Assembly: GCA_028715985.1 (NCBI GenBank) | Contig: JAQUQR010000001.1 | Span: 125,927-189,926 of the forward strand | Direction of reading: 5' to 3' | Length of the DNA: 64,000 nucleotides | Source of the DNA: Methanocellales archaeon | GTDB taxonomy: Archaea > Halobacteriota > UBA148 | Shown here: positions 2,602 to 63,964 of the stretch, piece after piece | Layout of the letters: each line of letters begins with the position of its first letter | Numbering within the stretch: position 1 is the stretch's first letter | The notes under the pieces: generated by a model | What the model was told of the DNA's origin: nothing | Databases searched by the model: none | What the model saw: only the letters and a program-made list of their open reading frames with translations | Program-made: the position numbers and the translations under genes

Positions 2602-3768
2602 ATGAACTATAACTGGCAAAAATATAAGGGGTGGATCATATGCATAATCATAACATTGGCAGTCTTTTTAATCTTGTATTACGCCTCTCCAAACACAGAT
2701 CAAGACAATGCAAGATACATATTAAGTGCGATCTCTCAGGGCTTGGCTGCCATACTTGCTTTGGTGTTTACGATTACGTTGGTAGTAGCTCAGATGACGA
2801 GAAGATACACGGCGATGGATAAGATCATATTTAGACGTGGAACCATCGGTTTAATGATTATTTTTGGATTAGGGGTTGTCACACCACTTTTAGTTCTTAA
2901 AGCAGGCTTCTGGGAATTGGGTGTAAATTTCTCAATTGCTCTTGCGGCTTTCTGCGTCTTTTCATTAATTCCATTTTTAAAAGACGTTAATAGCATATTG
3001 AAATATGAGATTGGAGCTGAGAATCTATATACAGAGTGTATAAACGCAATTAATTCAGGGTATGAAACAGAGACATCGGGCATCATCTTTGAATTGGGTG
3101 AGATTGTCAAAGGCGCAGTTAAAGAATCTTGTGAAGATGCGGTAGTAAATATAATATTTTATTTATCACAAATAGGCAAAAAATGTGCCGAAAAGAGATG
3201 GGTAGATGAGACTTGGTTGGTTATAGATAACTTAACACGTATTGGAGTCTATAGCGTTGGAAGGATATTTACATGGGCGACAAAGCCTACAGTCCGTGGA
3301 TTAAAAAATATCGGTGTTATGGCTGCTAAAAATAGATTGGAGGGTGCTTTCCTCCAAAGTAGGGATTTTCTGGCTGAAGAAGCCATCAATGGGTTAAAAA
3401 AGATCGGGATTAAAGCTGCTGAGATTAAAGCTGATGAGAAGGGGTTTAATAAAATATACGGTGGATCCGCTCGTGTTGCTGAAGATTTAAAGACCGCTTG
3501 CATGGGAGTCTCAATGGGCGGCATAATTGACATTTGCATGAAATTAGAAGATAAACATTTAGCTGTAAATGAGCTGTGGTGGGTAGGTGCATTTGTGACG
3601 AAATACTTACCTAAAAATAGTGATATAGCCATCCAAAGTCTTAAAGAAATAGAAGAAGATATCGGTAAGGGTGGATTGATGTATGGGGCGAAAAATTGTA
3701 CACGTGGCTACCCTCAACTAGAAGCCTCTTTGGAAGACTTTAAAGAGCAATATAACAAAAATACTTAA
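2602..3768 (+). CDS. Hypothetical membrane protein with about 4 N-terminal TM helices and a ~240 aa soluble domain.
   Basis: Hydrophobic segments within aa 10-130 and no recognised catalytic motif. Divergent from the neighbouring nuclease gene. Confidence 0.5.
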   Translation: MNYNWQKYKGWIICIIITLAVFLILYYASPNTDQDNARYILSAISQGLAAILALVFTITLVVAQMTRRYTAMDKIIFRRGTIGLMIIFGLGVVTPLLVLKAGFWELGVNFSIALAAFCVFSLIPFLKDVNSILKYEIGAENLYTECINAINSGYETETSGIIFELGEIVKGAVKESCEDAVVNIIFYLSQIGKKCAEKRWVDETWLVIDNLTRIGVYSVGRIFTWATKPTVRGLKNIGVMAAKNRLEGAFLQSRDFLAEEAINGLKKIGIKAAEIKADEKGFNKIYGGSARVAEDLKTACMGVSMGGIIDICMKLEDKHLAVNELWWVGAFVTKYLPKNSDIAIQSLKEIEEDIGKGGLMYGAKNCTRGYPQLEASLEDFKEQYNKNT

Positions 3769-3799: not shown

Positions 3800-5101
3800 T
3801 CACCCCTCTAACTTCAGCCCATACTCATCCAATCGCTCTTTTGCGCGTTCCCGTCCCTCCTGATGCTCCCTCAAAAATTTAATCATTAGTTCTGCAGCGA
3901 GCGACTTGCAACTCCCGCAGGTGCGTTTACCCTCCTTACATTCAGTGAATATCTCTGCCATATGGGCATCATCCTCTATCAAATGGAAAAGCAACAGTTC
4001 ATAGACCGTACATTTTTGGGGTTCACCGCCCAATTTGCGTTGATCCGTTAGGGTCACCCGCCCTCCAGTCTTTGCTTTCTTAACCTTTTCCGCTGCAACA
4101 TCGGGGGATTCTGTGAGAGCGATTATGCTGTCGGGAGAGCTGCTCGACATCTTCCCTCCCGTCAGTCCGCTCATAAAGCGATGATATATAGAGGAAGGAA
4201 GGATTAACCCGTATCCACCATGCTCAATTTCCACGGCCCGTACAACCGATTCGATCTTCCTTACGTCTTTATTGTCATAAATGTCCACGTGCTCGGCATA
4301 AATTTTCACGTCACCCTCCAAGCTATCAGCTATTTCATACATTGCCTCTTTGTTAGGGTGCTTTGCCCTGACGCTAATGTAATCCTCGCGTTGTTCCACT
4401 TTGAACATCCTCATCCGGCTTGCTATGTCCCGCGTAAGTCTGATATGGGGGTCTTGGTCAAATCCTACAGGAATCACAACTGGTTTGGGTCCCCCATATG
4501 CCTTCAGCTGTGGATGGAGGATATCCGCGCTTTGAACAAGCGCACTTACCATATGTGATATATGGGTCTCGCCGGAAAAACCATAGATTGCGCTCATCTC
4601 AGAGAGATTTGCCTCTACACCTAACTCAAAGGCCAGATCTTTGACAAAGGTGTCTTTCGATTGAAAATAGATCCTACCATTCGGTTCAAATCCGAGTGCT
4701 ATCACGCTAAGGACATACTCGTTGATGCCCCTCTCAGTGCATTCTTTCCATGGGATCCCTCGCACGGCATGCGCCTCCATGTCAGCTATTCCGAAGAATG
4801 CGTCTGCGCCCATCCGTTGGTGCCATATGATCTCATCCATCACCATCTTATGTCCTAGGTGCACCGGACCGGATGGCATAAATCCGCTCATGACGCCGAA
4901 GGGCTGATTTGAATGCATCGCATCCAAAATGGGTTGATAATCGCGATGGCCAAAGATTATTTGCCTTCTCATGTATAGGTGTGGATTGGGCACCTCTGCC
5001 AACAGATCCCCGAAAGGGGATACGCCAAACTCATCAAATAACTTAGAATAATCTTCTATGAAATTCGTGCTCCATGGATTGAGCTTTATTTTCCGCATCA
5101 T
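3800..5101 (-). CDS. trpS: Tryptophan--tRNA ligase, archaeal type.
   Basis: Class I aaRS motifs PSGPVHLGH and KMSSS. Its 433 aa size and adjacency to endA are typical for archaeal TrpRS. Confidence 0.8.
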
Positions 5102-6144
5102 GGCTTGGCCCTCCCGATATCAATGTATTTTACCTTTTTATCCTTTATGTAAGCAAAGATCATCTGCTTTCTAACGCTCTGAGCAAGCCTTATGGCACGT
5201 GACATCTCAGGCAACAAAAATATGTGGTCCTCTGGAATCGCGTGTACCAAATATTCTGAGTGTTGTAACCTTTTCATAGGCTCTATTTTCTTATAGACAC
5301 GGAAGTGGCTTCCAAACTTGAAACCTGTCTTTACAACCATTCCCTTATTTCTCATGTCCTCGTAGATATTGAGTTTCCTTTTGAAAGTGGGCTCAATTTT
5401 GGTTGCAACCCCTGTGAATTTCCTTAGACTGAGTGCATGTCCACTTCGATCAACGATCTCGATGACCTTCTTTTTTAGCAAGTATGCAGATTCGACCAAA
5501 GATAATTGTAACCTCTCCTCTTGGAGCTTTCCGAAGAAGCCATTATGGTAAAGGAAGTGAGCCAGCTTTGAGTCAAATATCATGGCCCTATCCTCTAATA
5601 ATAGGGCCTCCTCTTTAACATGATCTACTGGCTTCATATCCCCTTTCATCATTGCCCTTTTGACCTCATAGAAAGTTACTTCACTTTCCTCGTCAACTAT
5701 CGCTAATAATATTCCTTTTCGTACATTTTCCGCGGTTTCCATAAGAAATGTCAGTTTTGCCAAGGGAAGGGGTTTTCGCTCTGATATCACATGCACAAAA
5801 TACTCCGCTGGGGTTTCACCGGGTCTTTTACCCCTCGGATATAATCGAAAATCGGTTGCGCTCGGCTGTACATGGTACCCCCTTTCCTTAAGGTCCTTGT
5901 AAACGAGGTATTTCAGTTCGAAATTTTCCATTCGCATGGAAGCTATCTTGAAAAACTCCGCAAAGCTCAGAACATGTTTATCTAAAGCGATGGTGATTTT
6001 TGCCCTTTCCAGCAGATATGATGCTTCTGTTAATGATAATTCCAGGGTGTCTTCTCTGGGGCGCCCATAGTAGCTGGAATCATATAGCTCTGTTAGGGCC
6101 TCACTACCTACTATGACCTTGTCACCTATCAATTCGCCGTTCAT
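5098..6144 (-). CDS. endA: tRNA-splicing endonuclease, long duplicated form (homodimer type).
   Basis: 348 aa two-unit architecture with a conserved C-terminal catalytic region. The 4-nt overlap with trpS is a conserved archaeal gene pair. Confidence 0.75.
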
Positions 6145-6157
6145 ATCCTCACACAGA

Positions 6158-6229
6158 TGGACTCGGCGGGATTTGAACCCGCGGCCCCCGCGCTGCGAAC
6201 GTGGTGCTCTTCCACTGAGCTACGAGCCC
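6158..6229 (-). tRNA. tRNA-Ala (anticodon CGC).
   Basis: Cloverleaf with a G3:U70 wobble in the acceptor stem, which is the Ala identity element. Anticodon loop is TTCGCAG and T-arm is GCGGGTTCAAATCCCGC. No CCA is encoded. Confidence 0.8.
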
Positions 6230-37291: not shown

Positions 37292-37366
37292 TGGGGTTGC
37301 TGAGACTTGAACTCAGGTCACGGCGACCCGAACGCCGAAGGATAAACCAGACTACCCCACAACCCC
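37292..37366 (-). tRNA. tRNA-Pro (anticodon CGG).
   Basis: Acceptor GGGGTTG/CAACCCC, anticodon stem CGGCG/CGCCG with loop TTCGGGT, and T-arm CTGAGTTCAAGTCTCAG. Confidence 0.75.
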
Positions 37367-38006: not shown

Positions 38007-38418
38007 GTTTTTGGCTTAGGGCCCCCAACCGCATATATTTAATCTTACTCAATCTTGTCATTTTAGCATCCTTAATGGTCTCAAAAGGCTCATTTTGCAG
38101 CTCATATGGCACTCCAATATACACTTTCAATCTGGAATATGCACTCCGCCCATATTTTCGTTTATAGGGAAGCATGCCTCTAATTGTCCTTTTTAGTATC
38201 CGGTCTGGTCTCTTTGGGTAATACGGGCCTTTCTCCGTGGTGCCTCTATTTACTTGTCTATTGTACTTTTCGAACGTGTTCAACTTCGAGCCTGAAATTA
38301 CGGCTTTTTCTGTGTTCACGATGATTATCTCTTCACCCAAGAGTAGACGTTTTGATATACTTGATGCCAACCGTCCTAATATGAGCCCATCTGCATTGAT
38401 TATAGTCATTTCAATCAC
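37990..38418 (-). CDS. rpl13: 50S ribosomal protein L13.
   Basis: L13 family protein of 142 aa. Confidence 0.85.
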
Positions 38419-38768
38419 TGAATTATTCGAACTCCCTTACCAGAGGGGTTCTCCTCCATTAATTGCTCTATTGTGAGGCATTTTCCTTTCACGTTCGCGA
38501 TTTTATCTCTAGCAGAAAGGCTAAAGTCAAGAGCAACTATCGCCACTGAGTGATCTAGAATACCAGAGCCAAGCACCTTGCCTGGCACGAGCACTGTTTC
38601 CCCCTCTAATGCATGTCGGTTTATTTGACCGACGTTAACTTCTGCGTAATCTCTCGTCGGTCTTTCTAGCCGCTTTGCTACATCTTTCCAGATTGCTGCT
38701 TCTCTCTCACGTGATTTGATCTTAAGACCCTCTACTAATTTGACCAATCTTGGATTTGTTTTTGCCAT
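38415..38768 (-). CDS. rpl18e: 50S ribosomal protein L18e.
   Basis: L18e family protein of 117 aa. Confidence 0.8.
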
Positions 38769-38769
38769 A

Positions 38770-38937
38770 TGCGGGGGACGAGATTCGAACTCGCGAACTC
38801 CTACGAGACAAGGCCCTCAACCTTGCGCCTTTGACCCAGCAAGGAGAAATTGCATTTCTCCATTGACCTACCCTTTTCTCATTTCCCGTCAAGCGAGGTG
38901 GAAAAGGGCTTGTTTGACCAGACTTGGCAACCCCCGC
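38770..38937 (-). tRNA. tRNA-Leu (anticodon GAG) with an ~83-nt insertion (putative non-canonical intron) in the D-loop.
   Basis: 5' GCGGGGGTTGCCAAGTCTGGTCAAA and 3' GGCGCAAGG-TTGAGGG-CCTTG, with a long variable arm, T-arm CGAGTTCGAATCTCG and acceptor CCCCCGC-A. The gene is 168 nt against about 85 nt expected. The 7-nt repeat GGTCAAA sits at both insertion junctions. Confidence 0.65.
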
Positions 38938-39756
38938 TCAACTTAGCTTCTTCAAGCACTTTTTTAGCCCATCAGTCTTTTCTTTTATGTTATCTATTGA
39001 CCTTAAGATTATCTCCTCTGCTGGAAGCGAACCATGGGCTTCAAGGTTAAACACGAACGATGCAGGATCACTGCTAATATGTATCGCCCCTAACTCGCAG
39101 ATATCCTCACAAAGGCGGCACAGGGAACAATCGAGTTCGTTAGTAATCTTCAAGGTATCATCCAGCTTGAGTATGCCAGTCGGACAGACTTCCACACAGG
39201 CACCGCACCCATTGCATTTTGATACAGAGATGGTCGGCATATTTTTGTAGCTACACACAGCTGGTTGCCATTTCGAATGCTCTCGACCTTTGCCTAACCT
39301 TGCTATTGCCTCCAACCCCACTTTTTGACCTTCCATGAGTTTAATGATGGGTATTCTCTTGTCTGAAGGAACTATTTTTGGGTCAGATGACTTTAACTCT
39401 CCGGAATAAACAACTTTCGGTCCTTCAGCGCTTAGCGTCAGAGATACTTGACACTGTGGGCACCCCCCCTCACATTTGCACTCAGAGTGCAATATATAGG
39501 ACTCCAGATCGGTCTCCAGGGGGATTAAGCCCAAACGCAGAGCAAGCATTTCATCAAATAATACAGATGTGTTCTCGTATATGTTAACATCATCTATCGC
39601 CAGTGTTGGCACCTCTGCGATCGCACTCCGCCTTAGAGCGTTTGCGAAAGCGGATGAAACGCCAGACAATATGAATTTCGCTCTGCGATCAGATAGCTCT
39701 CTTATATCGATTTTCGTCTCAGACCCTCCTATCACCTTTCGACCGCGTTCCATCAT
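38938..39756 (-). CDS. rpoD: DNA-directed RNA polymerase subunit D (Rpo3) with a 4Fe-4S domain.
   Basis: RpoD dimerisation fold with [12 protein letters not shown] and [11 protein letters not shown] ferredoxin-like clusters. Confidence 0.85.
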
Positions 39757-40129: not shown

Positions 40130-40634
40130 TAGGAGGTTTAGCGTAGTATTCGATCTTGGACTCTTCGTCCTTTAGAACGGTGTAACTCGGAACGGTAATC
40201 TTTCTACCTGCAACCGCTACATGGCCATGAACAATGAGCTGGCGAGCATGTTTGGCAGAATTTGCAAGAGCTCTTCTGTGGACCAACGTTTGCAAGCGTC
40301 GTTCCAATATGTCCTCGATTCCTAAGGCGAGAATTTCATCTAATTCAGCATTTTTCTTTAGCAAGCCTATCTTGCTTAGTTTCCCTAACACGTTCTTTGA
40401 TTTCGATCGAGCATAATTCCCCACCTCGCCAGGTTCAGTTATCTCTGCAAGTAATTCTCGGGCTTCTCGTCGGTATTTTCTTAGTGTGCTATATGCCTTC
40501 CAAAGCTCTCGCTTATTTCTTAGACCATATTTTTTGACCAATTCTGCTTCCTCAGTCATCCTTGTCGCTTGCCATGGAAGACGAGGCGTTTCATACGTTT
40601 TTCTTTTCTTTCCTGGATAAGCCATGGCAATCAC
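40104..40634 (-). CDS. rps4: 30S ribosomal protein S4.
   Basis: S4 family protein with an S4 RNA-binding domain. Confidence 0.85.
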
Positions 40635-41119
40635 TTATTCTCTCCTTTTGCCGCCAGTATCTTCTTTTTTACAACTCCTACTGTAGCTCCCTTTCGCCCG
40701 GTTGACTTAGTTCTTTGACCTCTGACTTTGTGACCTCTCTCGTGCCTAATGCCCTTGTAACTACGCGTTTTCTTCATTCTGCTGAGGTCCTCTCGTAACG
40801 TCAGCATGACATCAGGACCAATAATGTGTCGTTCAGTGCCAAGTATTGGGTCTTTCTGCCTATTGACCATCCAACTAGGGGCACTTTTGTCGAAGTTCAT
40901 AACCGCCTTTTTCAATCGTTCAATCTCTTCATCGGACAAATAACCCATAGTGGACTTTAGATCCAATCCAGCGTTCCGAGCAGTTATACTTGCTGTCCTC
41001 CTGCCGATACCTCTTATGCCGGTAAGAGCATAGTGCACGCTCTTATTACCTTCTAGATCGGTGCTAGCGATTCTAACTATGTGCTTGATTTTTTCATCTG
41101 TCGTTTTTTGCTTATCCAT
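40631..41119 (-). CDS. rps13: 30S ribosomal protein S13.
   Basis: S13 family protein. Start moved to the internal Met (MDKQK...) because the longer ORF would run through tRNA-Ser. Confidence 0.8.
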   Translation of the reverse strand: MDKQKTTDEKIKHIVRIASTDLEGNKSVHYALTGIRGIGRRTASITARNAGLDLKSTMGYLSDEEIERLKKAVMNFDKSAPSWMVNRQKDPILGTERHIIGPDVMLTLREDLSRMKKTRSYKGIRHERGHKVRGQRTKSTGRKGATVGVVKKKILAAKGENK

Positions 41120-41168
41120 GTTATCACCCAGCTCAGACGAAGCAGGCACGCCAGGGAAGGGATTTGAA

Positions 41169-41253
41169 CCCTTGCGTTCCAGAGGAACACAAGCTCTCCA
41201 GGCTTGCGCTTTAGGCCGCTCAGCCACCCCGGCACAAGGGTCTAAAGCCCCGT
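41169..41253 (-). tRNA. tRNA-Ser (anticodon GGA).
   Basis: Class II tRNA with anticodon stem-loop CAAGC-CTGGAGA-GCTTG, a long variable arm and T-arm AAGGGTTCAAATCCCTT. Confidence 0.75.
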
Positions 41254-56061: not shown

Positions 56062-56886
56062 TTACCTCCTGATAATATTTAATATTGCAAGAGTTGCTAA
56101 TATTGCCTCTTCTGTTCTGACAGTATCGGTCCCTTGATTTGGGATCGTGTTTATTATGTGGTCAGCGAGATCAGATAGGAGTAAGCCCTCTTCCTCCAGG
56201 ATGGTATCAAGTCCTCTATTTGGGGAGCCAAACGCAATCGAGATTTCCCCTTTCATCGCCTCTCTCAGCTTGGACAGCATTTTTACGTCCACGACTTCGC
56301 CACATTTGGACGTCGCAATAACCTTGGACTGTGCTTTCAGCGTTTCACCTAATGTCCCTGAGATGTGGGTTTGATACCCCCAATATAGTGGGATTTGATC
56401 CTTATCTGCTAATTTAACCTGCAATGGCCTTCGCGAAAATATTTTGACGGTTACACGCTCCCCCTTCTGCAAGATTTTATCTGTGCTTAAAGGGACTGGG
56501 CTTTTTATCCCGATATCAACCCAAGCGTTTTCGCCAGGTCCAACTTTGGTTACGATTCCTTCTCGAAATTCTCCTGTCTTAGGAGTTAGCAATGGATGGT
56601 GTGGAGTTCGCAGTGGTGGGATGACACCCACATATCTTAGCTCCTCGCTCAACGGAAACAACTGCTTACGCATGTACTGTGGTGTTTCTGCATACCTAAG
56701 CACCAGGTCGATGAATTTGCTGTCGTCGTACTCCGGATCTTTGTAGATTATGATCTTGCCCACCCGGAATATCGAGGCCGATCTTGCGATTTGTCCTACC
56801 TTGTATATCTTGATTCGTGGATCCCTACTCTCAGATGTCAGAGAGGAGGGTATCAGTATTGACAGATAGCACTGCATTGCTGTCAT
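56062..56886 (-). CDS. Predicted SPOUT-superfamily RNA methyltransferase (COG2106-like).
   Basis: 274 aa in the conserved archaeal position at the head of the L3 operon. Confidence 0.6.
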   Translation of the reverse strand: MTAMQCYLSILIPSSLTSESRDPRIKIYKVGQIARSASIFRVGKIIIYKDPEYDDSKFIDLVLRYAETPQYMRKQLFPLSEELRYVGVIPPLRTPHHPLLTPKTGEFREGIVTKVGPGENAWVDIGIKSPVPLSTDKILQKGERVTVKIFSRRPLQVKLADKDQIPLYWGYQTHISGTLGETLKAQSKVIATSKCGEVVDVKMLSKLREAMKGEISIAFGSPNRGLDTILEEEGLLLSDLADHIINTIPNQGTDTVRTEEAILATLAILNIIRR

Positions 56887-59448: not shown

Positions 59449-60894
59449 TTGAAAGAGAATTTGGAAAAGCTTGGAGATTGTCTGTGGGAATTGCCTCAGG
59501 GCACCGTTAAAGGAATGAATGTACCAGCATGGATTTTCTTATCAGATAAATTGTTAGCGCATGTCGAGGAGGGTGCAGTAGTGCAGGCTGCAAATGTTGC
59601 CTGCCTACCGGGAATATACAAGCATTCTATTGCACTGCCGGATATGCATTTCGGTTATGGTTTCCCCATAGGAGGTGTTGCCGCCTTGGATGCCCAAAGC
59701 GGGGGCCTTTCTCCAGGTGGAATTGGCTTTGACATCAACTGTGGCGTTCGCCTGCTAAGAACAGATTTAACATCTGATGCATTGAAACCGGTGATGAAGT
59801 CTTTAATAGCGGAGATATTCAATAATGTGCCCTCAGGCGTTGGCAAGGGTGGAAAGGTCAAATTTTCGACGCGAGAGATTTGCGAAGCGATTGAGATGGG
59901 CGCTGGGTGGGCAGTGGAAGAGGGCTATGGGACTGAGAGGGACCTAGAGCATTTGGAAGAAAAGGGTTGTATGGACTCAGCTAAATCAGAGAAGGCATCA
60001 TCCAAGGCTATTCAAAGGGGTGAGCCCCAGCTTGGCTCCTTGGGAGCGGGAAATCATTTTTTGGAGGTCCAGAGGGTGGATAAAATATACCAGCCGGATA
60101 TTGCAAAGGCCTTTGGCATCTCTCACGAAGATCAGGTTTGTGTGATGATTCATACTGGATCCAGGGGTTTTGGACATCAAGTTTGCACCGATTATCTTCG
60201 GATATTGGAGATGAAGTTTAGAAATGAAATATCAAAGCTACCTGATCGCGAATTGGTGTATGCCCCTGCTGGAACCAATGAATTTGATGATTATTTTGCA
60301 GCTATGAGTTGTGCAGCGAATTTTGCCTGGTGTAATCGACAGATGATAACTCACTGGGTGAGGGAAGGCATAGCTAAGGTTCTGGGCATATCACCGGACG
60401 AGCTTGATCTTAACATCATATACGACGTCGCACATAACATCGGTAAATTAGAGAAACATGTGATAGATGGCGAGCAGACCGAAGTCGTCGTGCACAGGAA
60501 GGGGGCAACTCGGTGTCTAGGTCCTGGTGCAGCAGACATACCAAAGGATTATCGCGATGTGGGCCAGCCCGTGCTGGTTCCAGGAGACATGGGCTCTGCT
60601 AGCTACGTTTTAGTAGGGACAAAACTGGCTGAAAAGGAGACCTTTTCTTCCGTCTGCCATGGAGCAGGGCGTATCATGTCGAGACATAGTGCGGTGAAAA
60701 AATTCAGGGGAGAAGACATAAAGGCGAATTTGGAAAGCAGGAACATATTCGTACGGTCCGCCAGCTTGAAGATTTTAGCAGAAGAAGCGCCCGACGTATA
60801 TAAAGACATCAATGAGGTCGTTAGGGTTTGTGAAGTAGCTGGCATAAGCAAGACGGTTGCCAAATTAGTGCCAATGGGTGTGATGAAGGGATGA
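59449..60894 (+). CDS. rtcB: RNA-splicing ligase RtcB.
   Basis: DINCG, GAGNHF, HTGSRGFGHQ, HNIG and CHGAGR metal-ligand motifs, 481 aa. Confidence 0.9.
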   Translation: MKENLEKLGDCLWELPQGTVKGMNVPAWIFLSDKLLAHVEEGAVVQAANVACLPGIYKHSIALPDMHFGYGFPIGGVAALDAQSGGLSPGGIGFDINCGVRLLRTDLTSDALKPVMKSLIAEIFNNVPSGVGKGGKVKFSTREICEAIEMGAGWAVEEGYGTERDLEHLEEKGCMDSAKSEKASSKAIQRGEPQLGSLGAGNHFLEVQRVDKIYQPDIAKAFGISHEDQVCVMIHTGSRGFGHQVCTDYLRILEMKFRNEISKLPDRELVYAPAGTNEFDDYFAAMSCAANFAWCNRQMITHWVREGIAKVLGISPDELDLNIIYDVAHNIGKLEKHVIDGEQTEVVVHRKGATRCLGPGAADIPKDYRDVGQPVLVPGDMGSASYVLVGTKLAEKETFSSVCHGAGRIMSRHSAVKKFRGEDIKANLESRNIFVRSASLKILAEEAPDVYKDINEVVRVCEVAGISKTVAKLVPMGVMKG

Positions 60895-63541: not shown

Positions 63542-63964
63542 TCATATATCAAGGAGTACTTGAGCGATCCACATCCCATCGATCTGCTTGATTTCCATGC
63601 TGTGATACGTGCAAGCCTTTACATCTGTCTTCGTTATATGCTTAGCCGGATCGATGGGCTCACCTGAAACTTTTGCGCTAAGCCTCATCTGATTTTCATC
63701 TATCCGAACGTCAAATCTGGAGAAAGCGAGACCCTCAGCATCGACGTAGAATAGCAATTCGTTAAGCCACTCGAACATCAATGATTTTAAATCCTCGCCC
63801 TGAACCTTTATCTCTTTCACCACTATTGACTTGACGTTCTCAGTATCGATTATGACTTCAAACATCGCCAGGGCAGCATTGGCAAAAACCTCCTCTAAAG
63901 TTCTTCCATAGGCTTTGAAACATATGTCTGCTGTAGCAAATCCCAGAAACTCAAATTTTTTCAT
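63542..63964 (-). CDS. Archease (RtcB activator).
   Basis: MKKFEFLGFATADICFKAYG N-terminus and 140 aa length fit the archease family. Confidence 0.8.
   Translation of the reverse strand: MKKFEFLGFATADICFKAYGRTLEEVFANAALAMFEVIIDTENVKSIVVKEIKVQGEDLKSLMFEWLNELLFYVDAEGLAFSRFDVRIDENQMRLSAKVSGEPIDPAKHITKTDVKACTYHSMEIKQIDGMWIAQVLLDI

Follow-up and report, generated by a model that had tools for sequence, protein, structure and literature searches.

Introduction

The rule for bulge-helix-bulge (BHB) motifs of archaeal tRNA introns places the canonical helix at positions 32-35 and builds the bulge from positions 36 and 37 together with the first intron nucleotide (PMC4090602). Splicing endonucleases (EndA) of the alpha4 and alpha'2 types are described as limited to strict BHB motifs, essentially at the canonical 37/38 site, and Korarchaeum, in which the specificity loop of the enzyme is present, is stated to be the one host of an alpha2 enzyme in which non-canonical introns occur (PMC4033280, PMC4090602, PMC5829648); in vitro, the alpha'2 EndA of Archaeoglobus fulgidus "hardly cleaved" a BHB intron in the D-loop (PMC3241643). 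Exceptions to the strict-BHB rule are nevertheless already on record: the non-canonical introns tallied in Table S7 of tRNAscan-SE 2.0 number 4 for Methanocellales (3 genomes), 11 for Methanosarcinales (35 genomes) and 6 for Methanomassiliicoccales (3 genomes) (PMC8450103). Here we describe a tRNA-Leu(GAG) gene in a 64-kb stretch of contig JAQUQR010000001.1 from a Methanocellales archaeon (the whole 64,000-nt stretch is called the window below). An insert splits the D-loop of this gene, and we argue that it is very probably a functional tRNA gene whose intron, of the protein-spliced BHB type, separates A21 from A22 where the D-loop ends on its 3' side.

How does this locus compare with the systems already described? 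The introns of Table S7 (PMC8450103) from cultured Methanocellales and Methanosarcinales share its order-level label and EndA type and show that hosts with an alpha'2 enzyme were already known to have non-canonical introns, but the table gives counts only, without tRNA or position. Like the 20b/21 intron of Methanopyrus kandleri pre-tRNA-Glu(UUC) (Kaneta et al. 2018, PMC5829648), the Leu(GAG) intron is euryarchaeal, non-canonical and located at the 3' end of the D-loop, and in both cases the BHB appears relaxed (HBh'), with a good helix on the intron side and a poor one on the exon side, in a host whose EndA lacks the specificity loop (PMC5829648). The M. kandleri enzyme, however, is an (alpha-beta)2 heterotetramer and its tRNA-Glu also carries a canonical intron, whereas the window encodes an alpha'2 enzyme and the Leu(GAG) gene a single intron, at 21/22, one nucleotide further 3', and far greater in length, with 83 nt here and as many as 241 nt in an ortholog (L004). 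The D-loop BHB intron of Aeropyrum pernix pre-tRNA-Thr(UGU) is another parallel and is removed by EndA without any need for modifications (Hirata et al. 2011, PMC3241643), but A. pernix is a crenarchaeon with an (alpha-beta)2 EndA bearing the Crenarchaea-specific loop, and its intron is the very substrate on which A. fulgidus alpha'2 EndA did so poorly (PMC3241643); the window's host has only a loop-less alpha'2 enzyme. Thermoproteales introns, as they are summarized in PMC4090602 from Sugahara et al. 2008 and Fujishima et al. 2010, are likewise bounded by BHBs, occupy D-arm sites (20/21, 22/23), have direct-repeat-like junctions and turn over rapidly inside; in the same summary a genome has many of them, they bear marks of having transposed from one tRNA to another, and the EndA that accompanies them is loop-bearing, whereas the Leu(GAG) intron is single, confined to one site and apparently inherited vertically. 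Finally, the C/D box intron of archaeal tRNA-Trp, which EndA removes, is similarly long (~65 nt or more) and structured, but it lies at the canonical 37/38 site and has C/D boxes and a guide function, none of which we find in the Leu(GAG) intron.

A tRNA-Leu(GAG) gene interrupted in the D-loop

The gene occupies 168 nt of the minus strand, from position 38937 to 38770, and reads 5' to 3' as GCGGGGGUUGCCAAGUCUGGUCAA (exon 1), ACAAGCCC...CUCCUUGCUGGGUCAA (intron) and AGGCGCAAGGUUGAGGGCCUUG...CCCCCGCA (exon 2). Exon 1 (38914..38937, minus), from G1 to A21, supplies the 5' strand of the acceptor stem, U8U9, the 5' strand of the D-stem (GCC) and the D-loop AGUCUGGUCAA; exon 2 (38770..38830, minus), from A22 to the discriminator A73, supplies the 3' strand of the D-stem, the anticodon arm with the anticodon GAG at 38818-38816, the variable arm, the T-arm and the 3' strand of the acceptor stem. 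Removal of the 83 nt between them (38913-38831) restores a canonical tRNA of the expected isotype, as an archaeal BHB intron should: an 85-nt class II tRNA, folded by ARAGORN as tRNA-Leu(gag), with a 7-bp acceptor stem (GCGGGGG/CCCCCGC), discriminator A, a 3-bp D-stem, an 11-nt D-loop, a long variable arm and a T-arm. The anticodon loop (UUGAGGG) is unbroken, the insert lying between A21 and A22 and not at the canonical 37/38 location, and the gene has two copies of the motif GGTCAAA, one at positions 19-25 and one at 102-108. Exact coordinates and in-silico splicing therefore bear out a preliminary description of this DNA, which had proposed a 168-nt tRNA-Leu(GAG) gene with an insert of about 83 nt in the D-loop, two halves that together form a class II tRNA-Leu, and a 7-nt direct repeat at the junctions.

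The unspliced gene is not called by ARAGORN, with the intron option on or off, and the interval 38770-38937 has no Rfam match at either the gathering threshold or E<=1. Neither tool is able to handle D-loop inserts, so these misses say nothing against the gene. An assembly artefact is an unlikely source of the split, because a 1,554-bp stretch including the gene is identical in a contig of an NCBI metagenome-assembled genome (MAG; GCA_028692575.1) and the L18e protein encoded next to the tRNA is recorded on three contigs.

Orthologs in a Methanocellales-labelled lineage

The RpoD, EndA and L18e proteins group the window with uncultured archaea whose NCBI labels are Methanocellales, Methanocellaceae UBA148, 'Methanosarcinales Met33H/Met12' and Halobacteriota. 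The three proteins thus point to a Methanocellales-labelled lineage, and the idea that the host is a relative of the Methanosarcinales did not hold. Between cultured Methanocella and the window, RpoD identity is only 53%, about the same distance as for Methanoperedens. We collected ortholog loci as rpoD-to-L18e junctions from genome, ENA, JGI and Logan contigs (fetched loci carry L-numbers below), and obtained 18 orthologous Leu(GAG) genes, most of them directly downstream of rpoD, from loci whose RpoD is 62-93% identical to the window's. The set of 18 draws on the window itself, on MAGs of genome collections and on metagenome and Logan contigs. All 18 have an insert at one and the same D-loop site, with lengths of 31, 32, 41, 42, 45, 48, 53, 61, 79-88 and 241 nt.

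Outside this clade the gene is uninterrupted: Leu(GAG) is intact in Methanoperedens loci with the same rpoD-tRNA arrangement, and at least about 120 Leu(GAG) genes of other archaea with an identical anticodon arm, among the matches listed, are contiguous. A metagenome scan with a 23-nt exon-2 pattern, which served as a negative control, returned no new intron-bearing loci among the matches listed. The locus of Methanocella sp. CWC-04 (L156) has no tRNA after rpoD, and an L18e protein search returned no named Methanocella among its results. The simplest history would be a single gain of the intron at the base of the Methanocellales-labelled clade, followed by vertical inheritance.

Are these genes under selection as tRNAs? 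Across the orthologs the exons are 83-100% identical to the window's, exon 1 included, which speaks against the possibility, named in the preliminary description, that orthologous loci might expose the 5' segment as an unrelated fragment. The spliced length is 85 nt in all 15 complete orthologs, and the cloverleaf is paired in 184 of 184 cells over eight distinct spliced sequences. Three pairs have changed on both sides in a compensatory manner, two in the T-stem (C-G/U-A/A-U and A-U/G-C) and one in the variable arm (U-A/C-G). The intron interiors, by contrast with the exons, cannot be aligned between sub-lineages, and this combination of conserved exons and a fast-evolving spacer appears to be the signature of a functional gene.

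The longest intron, 241 nt, belongs to the MAG 'Methanocellales archaeon Yes46-07' (L004:4844-5084) and forms a string of hairpins. Its length exceeds the range of 11-129 nt quoted for archaeal tRNA introns in a 2014 review; it retains the BHB core described below (with GGCU as the intron strand of the central helix and AGA as the bulge), and it contains no significant open reading frame, the single stop-free frame not being significant.

A bulge-helix-bulge shared by all junctions

Applying the BHB rule, we matched the four exon nucleotides 5' of the 5' splice site with the intron tetranucleotide that lies 5' of the 3' site and put one cut in each 3-nt bulge, past its second nucleotide. Among the registers permitted by the direct repeat, one alone then yields a 4-bp helix, the central exon-intron helix expected of an archaeal BHB intron. 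Its exon strand, H5, is G18 G19 U20 C20a (GGUC, 38916..38919, minus), and its intron strand, H3, is a second GGUC (38833..38836, minus), the pairs in the window being G-C, G·U, U·G and C-G. An AAA bulge stands on each strand (5' bulge 38913..38915, 3' bulge 38830..38832, both minus; gene positions 23-25 and 106-108), one at either end of the helix, which is the two-bulge geometry of a BHB. Under the rule, cleavage would fall after the second A of each, at 38914/38913 for the 5' site and 38831/38830 for the 3' site.

The comparative evidence for this helix is strong and specific to one register. All four pairs form in 18 of 18 orthologs in a single common register, although H5 varies among GGUC, GGCC and GGUU and H3 among GGUC, GGCU, GACU, GGCC, GACC and GGUU. 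Over the 14 distinct junctions, 56 of 56 cells are paired, whereas sliding the partner by 1-3 columns lowers pairing of the whole structure to 15-50%, and the covariation score of the real alignment was not attained in any of 500 shuffles. In h', the helix on the intron side, the first pair alternates as well (C-G in 7, A-U in 6, U-A in 1). The bulges follow a consensus of AAN on the 5' side (AAU, AAC or AAA) and NNA on the 3' side, and in five orthologs (L004, L007, L160, L011 and L162) the ensemble probability of the H pairs is 0.8-1.0. The interior of the intron seems to have evolved fast since its gain while the BHB core stayed fixed.

What, then, of the direct repeat? In orthologs it decays, to GGCCAAU/GGCUAAA, GGUUAAC/GACUAAA or GGUCAAA/GGCUAGA, and in L004, L158, L162 and L163 it is lost, the 3' bulge there being AGA or AUA and H3 being GGCU, GGCC or GACC; the mature D-loop of these four (GGUCAA/AGGC) is unchanged, and only in the preferred register. 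The 7-nt repeat of the window is explained by the GGUC helix, self-complementary through its two G·U pairs, together with the two AAA bulges, and we read it as a by-product of helix and bulges, not a target-site duplication. Two of the Logan contigs (L162:2016-2218 and L163:1174-1387) encode an identical RpoD protein (P0012) and have near-identical flanks but different introns, of 32 and 42 nt, with 5' bulges AAA and AAU and with h' formed by C-G in one and UGAG/CUCA in the other; this difference would reflect very recent remodelling of the intron with the BHB preserved.

The preliminary description had looked for a BHB-like structure at the junctions, and the conserved GGUC/GGUC helix with its AAA bulges provides one, though not the one it had drawn. 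Its core of CAAG and CTTG, taken as the first and last four intron nucleotides, does not occupy those places in any register that obeys the BHB rule; pairing CAAG (gene positions 26-29) with CUUG (95-98) sets AAA and CUG face to face in a 3x3 internal loop, and that helix is confined to the window's sub-lineage and absent from the other orthologs. Thermodynamic folding of the junction region, which it had recommended, misses the BHB in the window sequence, where the motif consequently rests on comparison with the orthologs.

Several points weigh against the interpretation of the gene as one with a BHB-spliced intron. The outer, exon-side helix h is 0-2 bp long, is absent (0 bp) in 8 of the 18 orthologs and competes with the D-stem, while h' ranges from 1 to 11 bp; with h so weak, the surroundings of the 3' splice site depart from a strict hBHBh' motif. 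In the window h is 2 bp (U17a·G23, C17-G24) and h' 2 bp (C-G, A-U), where a strict hBHBh' needs at least 2 bp of each; h' may continue, past a possible bulged A, with G-C and C-G, and the CUUGCUG block of the window's sub-lineage may add to it (L157 has a contiguous CAGC/GCUG). The motif of the family is probably better described as relaxed and HBh'-like than as strict hBHBh'. Moreover, nearest-neighbour calculations for the window and the five relatives closest to it give the H pairs a probability near 0, the BHB-constrained fold of the window's sub-lineage lies ~7 kcal/mol above the minimum free energy, and RNAalifold favours a competitor in which G15-A21 forms a helix with the intron's 3' end; every column of this competitor is invariant, so covariation provides no evidence for or against it. 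The host's EndA has no specificity loop, and the A. fulgidus alpha'2 result (PMC3241643) has to be set beside that. The single-copy status of the Leu(GAG) gene is judged from the 64-kb window and is, for the whole genome, a probability. Splicing, junction position and operon processing are themselves deduced from sequence, on the basis of a gene anatomy, a conserved intron site, a covarying central helix, selected exons and an enzyme set that are directly observed.

An alternative splice register

When every BHB geometry that the gene allows was scanned by brute force, exactly two registers proved to yield an 85-nt product, and the second deserves a hearing. In it, the window's sub-lineage would be cut 7 nt upstream: exon nucleotides C12 A13 A14 G15 would pair with intron nucleotides C95 U96 U97 G98, UCU and CUG would be the bulges, and cleavage after C17 and U100 (38921/38920 and 38838/38837) would give an 85-nt tRNA with G in place of U at 17a (...AAGUCGGGUCAAAGG...). 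This lies near the CTTG/CTG idea of the preliminary description, has four Watson-Crick pairs where the preferred register has two G·U pairs, and draws on a block, CCUUGCUG, that is invariant in six close relatives. We nevertheless consider it unlikely. Outside the window's sub-lineage no ortholog has the CUUG+3 element; in 7 of 7 sequences its constrained fold is less favourable than that of the preferred register, by 3-7 kcal/mol; C95, which the register needs, closes a hairpin of the intron (hairpin 2 below); and in L004 the resulting D-loop, GGGCUAGA, would be aberrant, the near-universal A21 being replaced by G in a tRNA that is otherwise 98.8% identical. We keep it as a minor rival because one nucleotide of the mature tRNA distinguishes the two registers. 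A further candidate, a helix of A14-C17 with H3, was rejected: it is paired in 84% of cases against 100% for G18-N20a and shows no covariation.

Splicing enzymes and a proposed pathway

The window encodes the enzymes that splicing of such an intron calls for, as the preliminary description had stated and Pfam matches confirm. EndA (5098..6144, minus) is an alpha'2-type tRNA splicing endonuclease of 348 aa with two N+C repeats (PF01974 and PF02778, two stretches each); the RtcB RNA ligase lies at 59449..60894 on the plus strand (PF01139, E=2e-170), and archease, the RtcB cofactor, at 63542..63964 on the minus strand (PF01951, E=1e-45). The best relative of EndA with a solved structure is A. fulgidus EndA (1R0V/2GJW, E=2e-37), with which the catalytic Y/H/K residues align. 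The alignment is gapless at the site where the Crenarchaea-specific loop (CSL) was engineered into the A. fulgidus protein (...YGSEKGDLVTLSL...), and the window's EndA contains no CSL/L1-L3 insertion. An alignment of five EndAs of the same lineage with five from Methanosarcinales is collinear and reveals no clade-specific insertion. The EndA gene also sits in an apparent compact cluster of tRNA-related genes (3800-6229, minus), where it shares 4 nt with the beginning of the gene for a class I aminoacyl-tRNA synthetase of the Trp/Tyr type (3800-5101, minus) and lies 13 nt downstream of a tRNA-Ala(CGC) gene (6158-6229).

From these elements we propose the following pathway for the preferred register. 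In the precursor, the central helix would be formed by G18 G19 U20 C20a and an intron tetranucleotide just upstream of the 3' site, with a 3-nt AAA bulge on each strand and an intron-internal helix closing the 5' bulge. The alpha'2 EndA would then cut after the second nucleotide of each bulge, and RtcB with archease would join the exons into the 85-nt tRNA, with a mature junction of ...AAGUCUGGUCAA/AGGCGCAAGG..., and would probably circularize the intron.

The interior of the intron

Could the intron be retained for an RNA of its own, such as a C/D box guide, as in tRNA-Trp, or another stable or circular small RNA? At 83 nt it is long for an archaeal tRNA intron (review medians are 12-25 nt), and folding predicts two hairpins that are conserved in the window's sub-lineage. 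Hairpin 1 (GCCCUUUUCC...GAAAAGGGU; 38870..38909, minus) has an arm, CCCUUUUCC, common to the window, L160 and L168. Hairpin 2 (GGAGAAAU GCA AUUUCUCC; 38843..38861, minus), which is restricted to the window's sub-lineage, keeps the sequence of its stem and varies its loop in L002, L005, L006, L157 and L004, and L162 and L163 have a related hairpin in the 5' leader of this tRNA. We find a cargo function improbable all the same. None of the 18 introns has a C and D box pair: the strict C box (RUGAUGA) is absent from all of them, and the D box CUGA occurs once (L007), where it overlaps the BHB. No Rfam family matches the intron even at E<=1, and no copy of it was found elsewhere in the window or in the fetched loci. 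The introns of 31-32 nt (L009, L010, L011, L158 and L162) consist of the BHB and a closing stem only, so any cargo would be lineage-specific and dispensable. The two hairpins of the window's intron are accordingly best taken as probable lineage-specific additions, and C/D boxes, Rfam and copy searches give no evidence that the intron has a function of its own. The most economical view would be that the intron is passively retained, its BHB kept by selection on an essential, probably single-copy tRNA.

The leader hairpin is an observation in its own right. About 30 nt upstream of tRNA position 1, the 5' leader of L162 and L163 (GUCAAGAGGCGAAUGCUUUCUCCUCAAGA) resembles hairpin 2 and its flanks (GUCAAUGGAGAAAUGCAAUUUCUCCUUGCUG), so that similar hairpins occur in the tRNA leader of these loci and in the intron of the window's lineage.

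That the gene is instead a dead tRNA, hit by a small mobile element that left GGTCAAA as a 7-bp target-site duplication, is hardly credible: the repeat is perfect on both sides of the insert in the window and standard tRNA finders do not call the gene, but the orthologs lose the repeat as a repeat while keeping the base-pairing between its two copies, the terminal inverted repeats of the insert are at most 4 nt, no second copy exists in the 64 kb or in ~170 fetched loci, the insert, 31-241 nt long, always occupies one fixed site, and the exons remain under strong purifying selection, with compensatory changes, down to 62% RpoD identity. Insertion of a miniature inverted-repeat transposable element (MITE) or an insertion sequence with target-site duplication was rejected on the decay of the repeat, the kept complementarity and the lack of other copies; a self-splicing group I or II intron was rejected given an insert of only 83 nt and the empty Rfam result for 38770-38937 at E<=1.

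Operon setting and neighbouring genes

The tRNA gene is embedded in the gene order S13-S4-S11-rpoD-[tRNA]-L18e-L13-S9-rpoN. The gene for RNA polymerase subunit D, rpoD (38938..39756, minus), ends in a TGA (38940-38938) that is in contact with G1 of the tRNA, with a spacer of 0 nt, and the gene for ribosomal protein L18e (38415..38768, minus) begins 1 nt past the discriminator. The preliminary description had seen no spacer on either side; this is exact for the rpoD stop, whereas the L18e ATG (38768) follows after one nucleotide. The arrangement suggests that tRNA-Leu is co-transcribed within this operon, in which case the end cuts by RNase P and RNase Z would also set the 3' end of the rpoD message and produce a nearly leaderless L18e message. 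More speculatively, the intron, by sequestering G18/G19 and blocking the tRNA elbow, could delay the RNase P and RNase Z cuts that sever the rpoD-L18e transcript.

Other tRNA genes are packed in the same operon. A tRNA-Pro(CGG) gene (37292-37366, minus), which ARAGORN calls and the Rfam tRNA model misses even at E<=1, begins 2 nt past the rpoN stop and is thus a second tRNA packed tightly in the operon; orthologs are called in L167, L168 and L170. The longest S13 open reading frame (region 40631-41234, minus; GTG start at 41227) overlaps tRNA-Ser(GGA) at 41148-41234, and the true start of S13 is probably an internal ATG (MDKQK...), so that a third tRNA would directly adjoin the coding region of the operon. 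Elsewhere in the window, at 56444-56537 (minus), Rfam recognizes an L4-Archaeoglobi ribosomal-protein leader (RF03135, 43.2 bits, above the gathering score) upstream of a large ribosomal protein cluster.

The operon junction is not constant among relatives. In L167, from the Methanocellales MAG JAWCLZ01, a tRNA-Gly(UCC) with an apparent canonical intron of ~15 nt precedes L18e (1336-1422) in place of tRNA-Leu, and rpoD is not adjacent; in L170, from a Halobacteriota MAG, no tRNA precedes L18e and S13-S4-S11 is inverted. The junction has therefore been rearranged in some relatives.

In Methanoperedens, the intron-less Leu(GAG) after rpoD is an apparent hot spot of integration. The sequence diverges right after the tRNA 3' end in every one of the loci L013-L031, with L18e no longer next; in L026 (2540-2800) a 43-nt partial copy of the 5' part of the tRNA lies ~150 nt upstream of the full copy; and in L165 a phage-type integrase lies ~1.1 kb downstream of the tRNA region (3134-3186). 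Five loci (L016, L023, L024, L030 and L031) have in common a palindromic insert of ~100 nt between rpoD and tRNA-Leu, MITE-like in look (AAACCUUUAGAAAGGUUU...GGGUAUGGCACGCCAUACCC...GACACGCCC...).

Discussion

Comparative evidence supports a tRNA-Leu(GAG) with a non-canonical D-loop intron, the central proposal of the preliminary description. What does such an intron imply for the enzyme that would remove it? We tentatively entertain the idea, although we somewhat doubt it, that a loop-less alpha'2 EndA routinely excises a D-loop intron with a weak or absent exon-side helix across the whole clade. Reviews reserve substrates of this class for loop-bearing enzymes, and the model alpha'2 EndA, that of A. 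fulgidus, hardly cleaves them in vitro. Either the substrate range of alpha'2 enzymes would then be broader than the rule that EndA architecture co-evolves with intron type allows, or the enzyme would make use of a helper, for which the tertiary structure of the pre-tRNA, a chaperone or a modification are candidates.

The Leu(GAG) intron is a further, well-resolved and conserved case of the known non-canonical archaeal tRNA introns; it overturns nothing, and the picture of how archaeal tRNA introns work is unchanged by it. It does have a practical consequence for annotation: because both ARAGORN and the Rfam tRNA model miss the gene, genomes of this clade seem to be without tRNA-Leu(GAG) unless non-canonical introns are searched. 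The clade also constitutes a clean natural test set for the splice site, with 18 variants of 31-241 nt around one fixed BHB core, and its pairing of a loop-less alpha'2 EndA with a D-loop intron is relevant to the proposal that EndA architecture and the position of introns have co-evolved.

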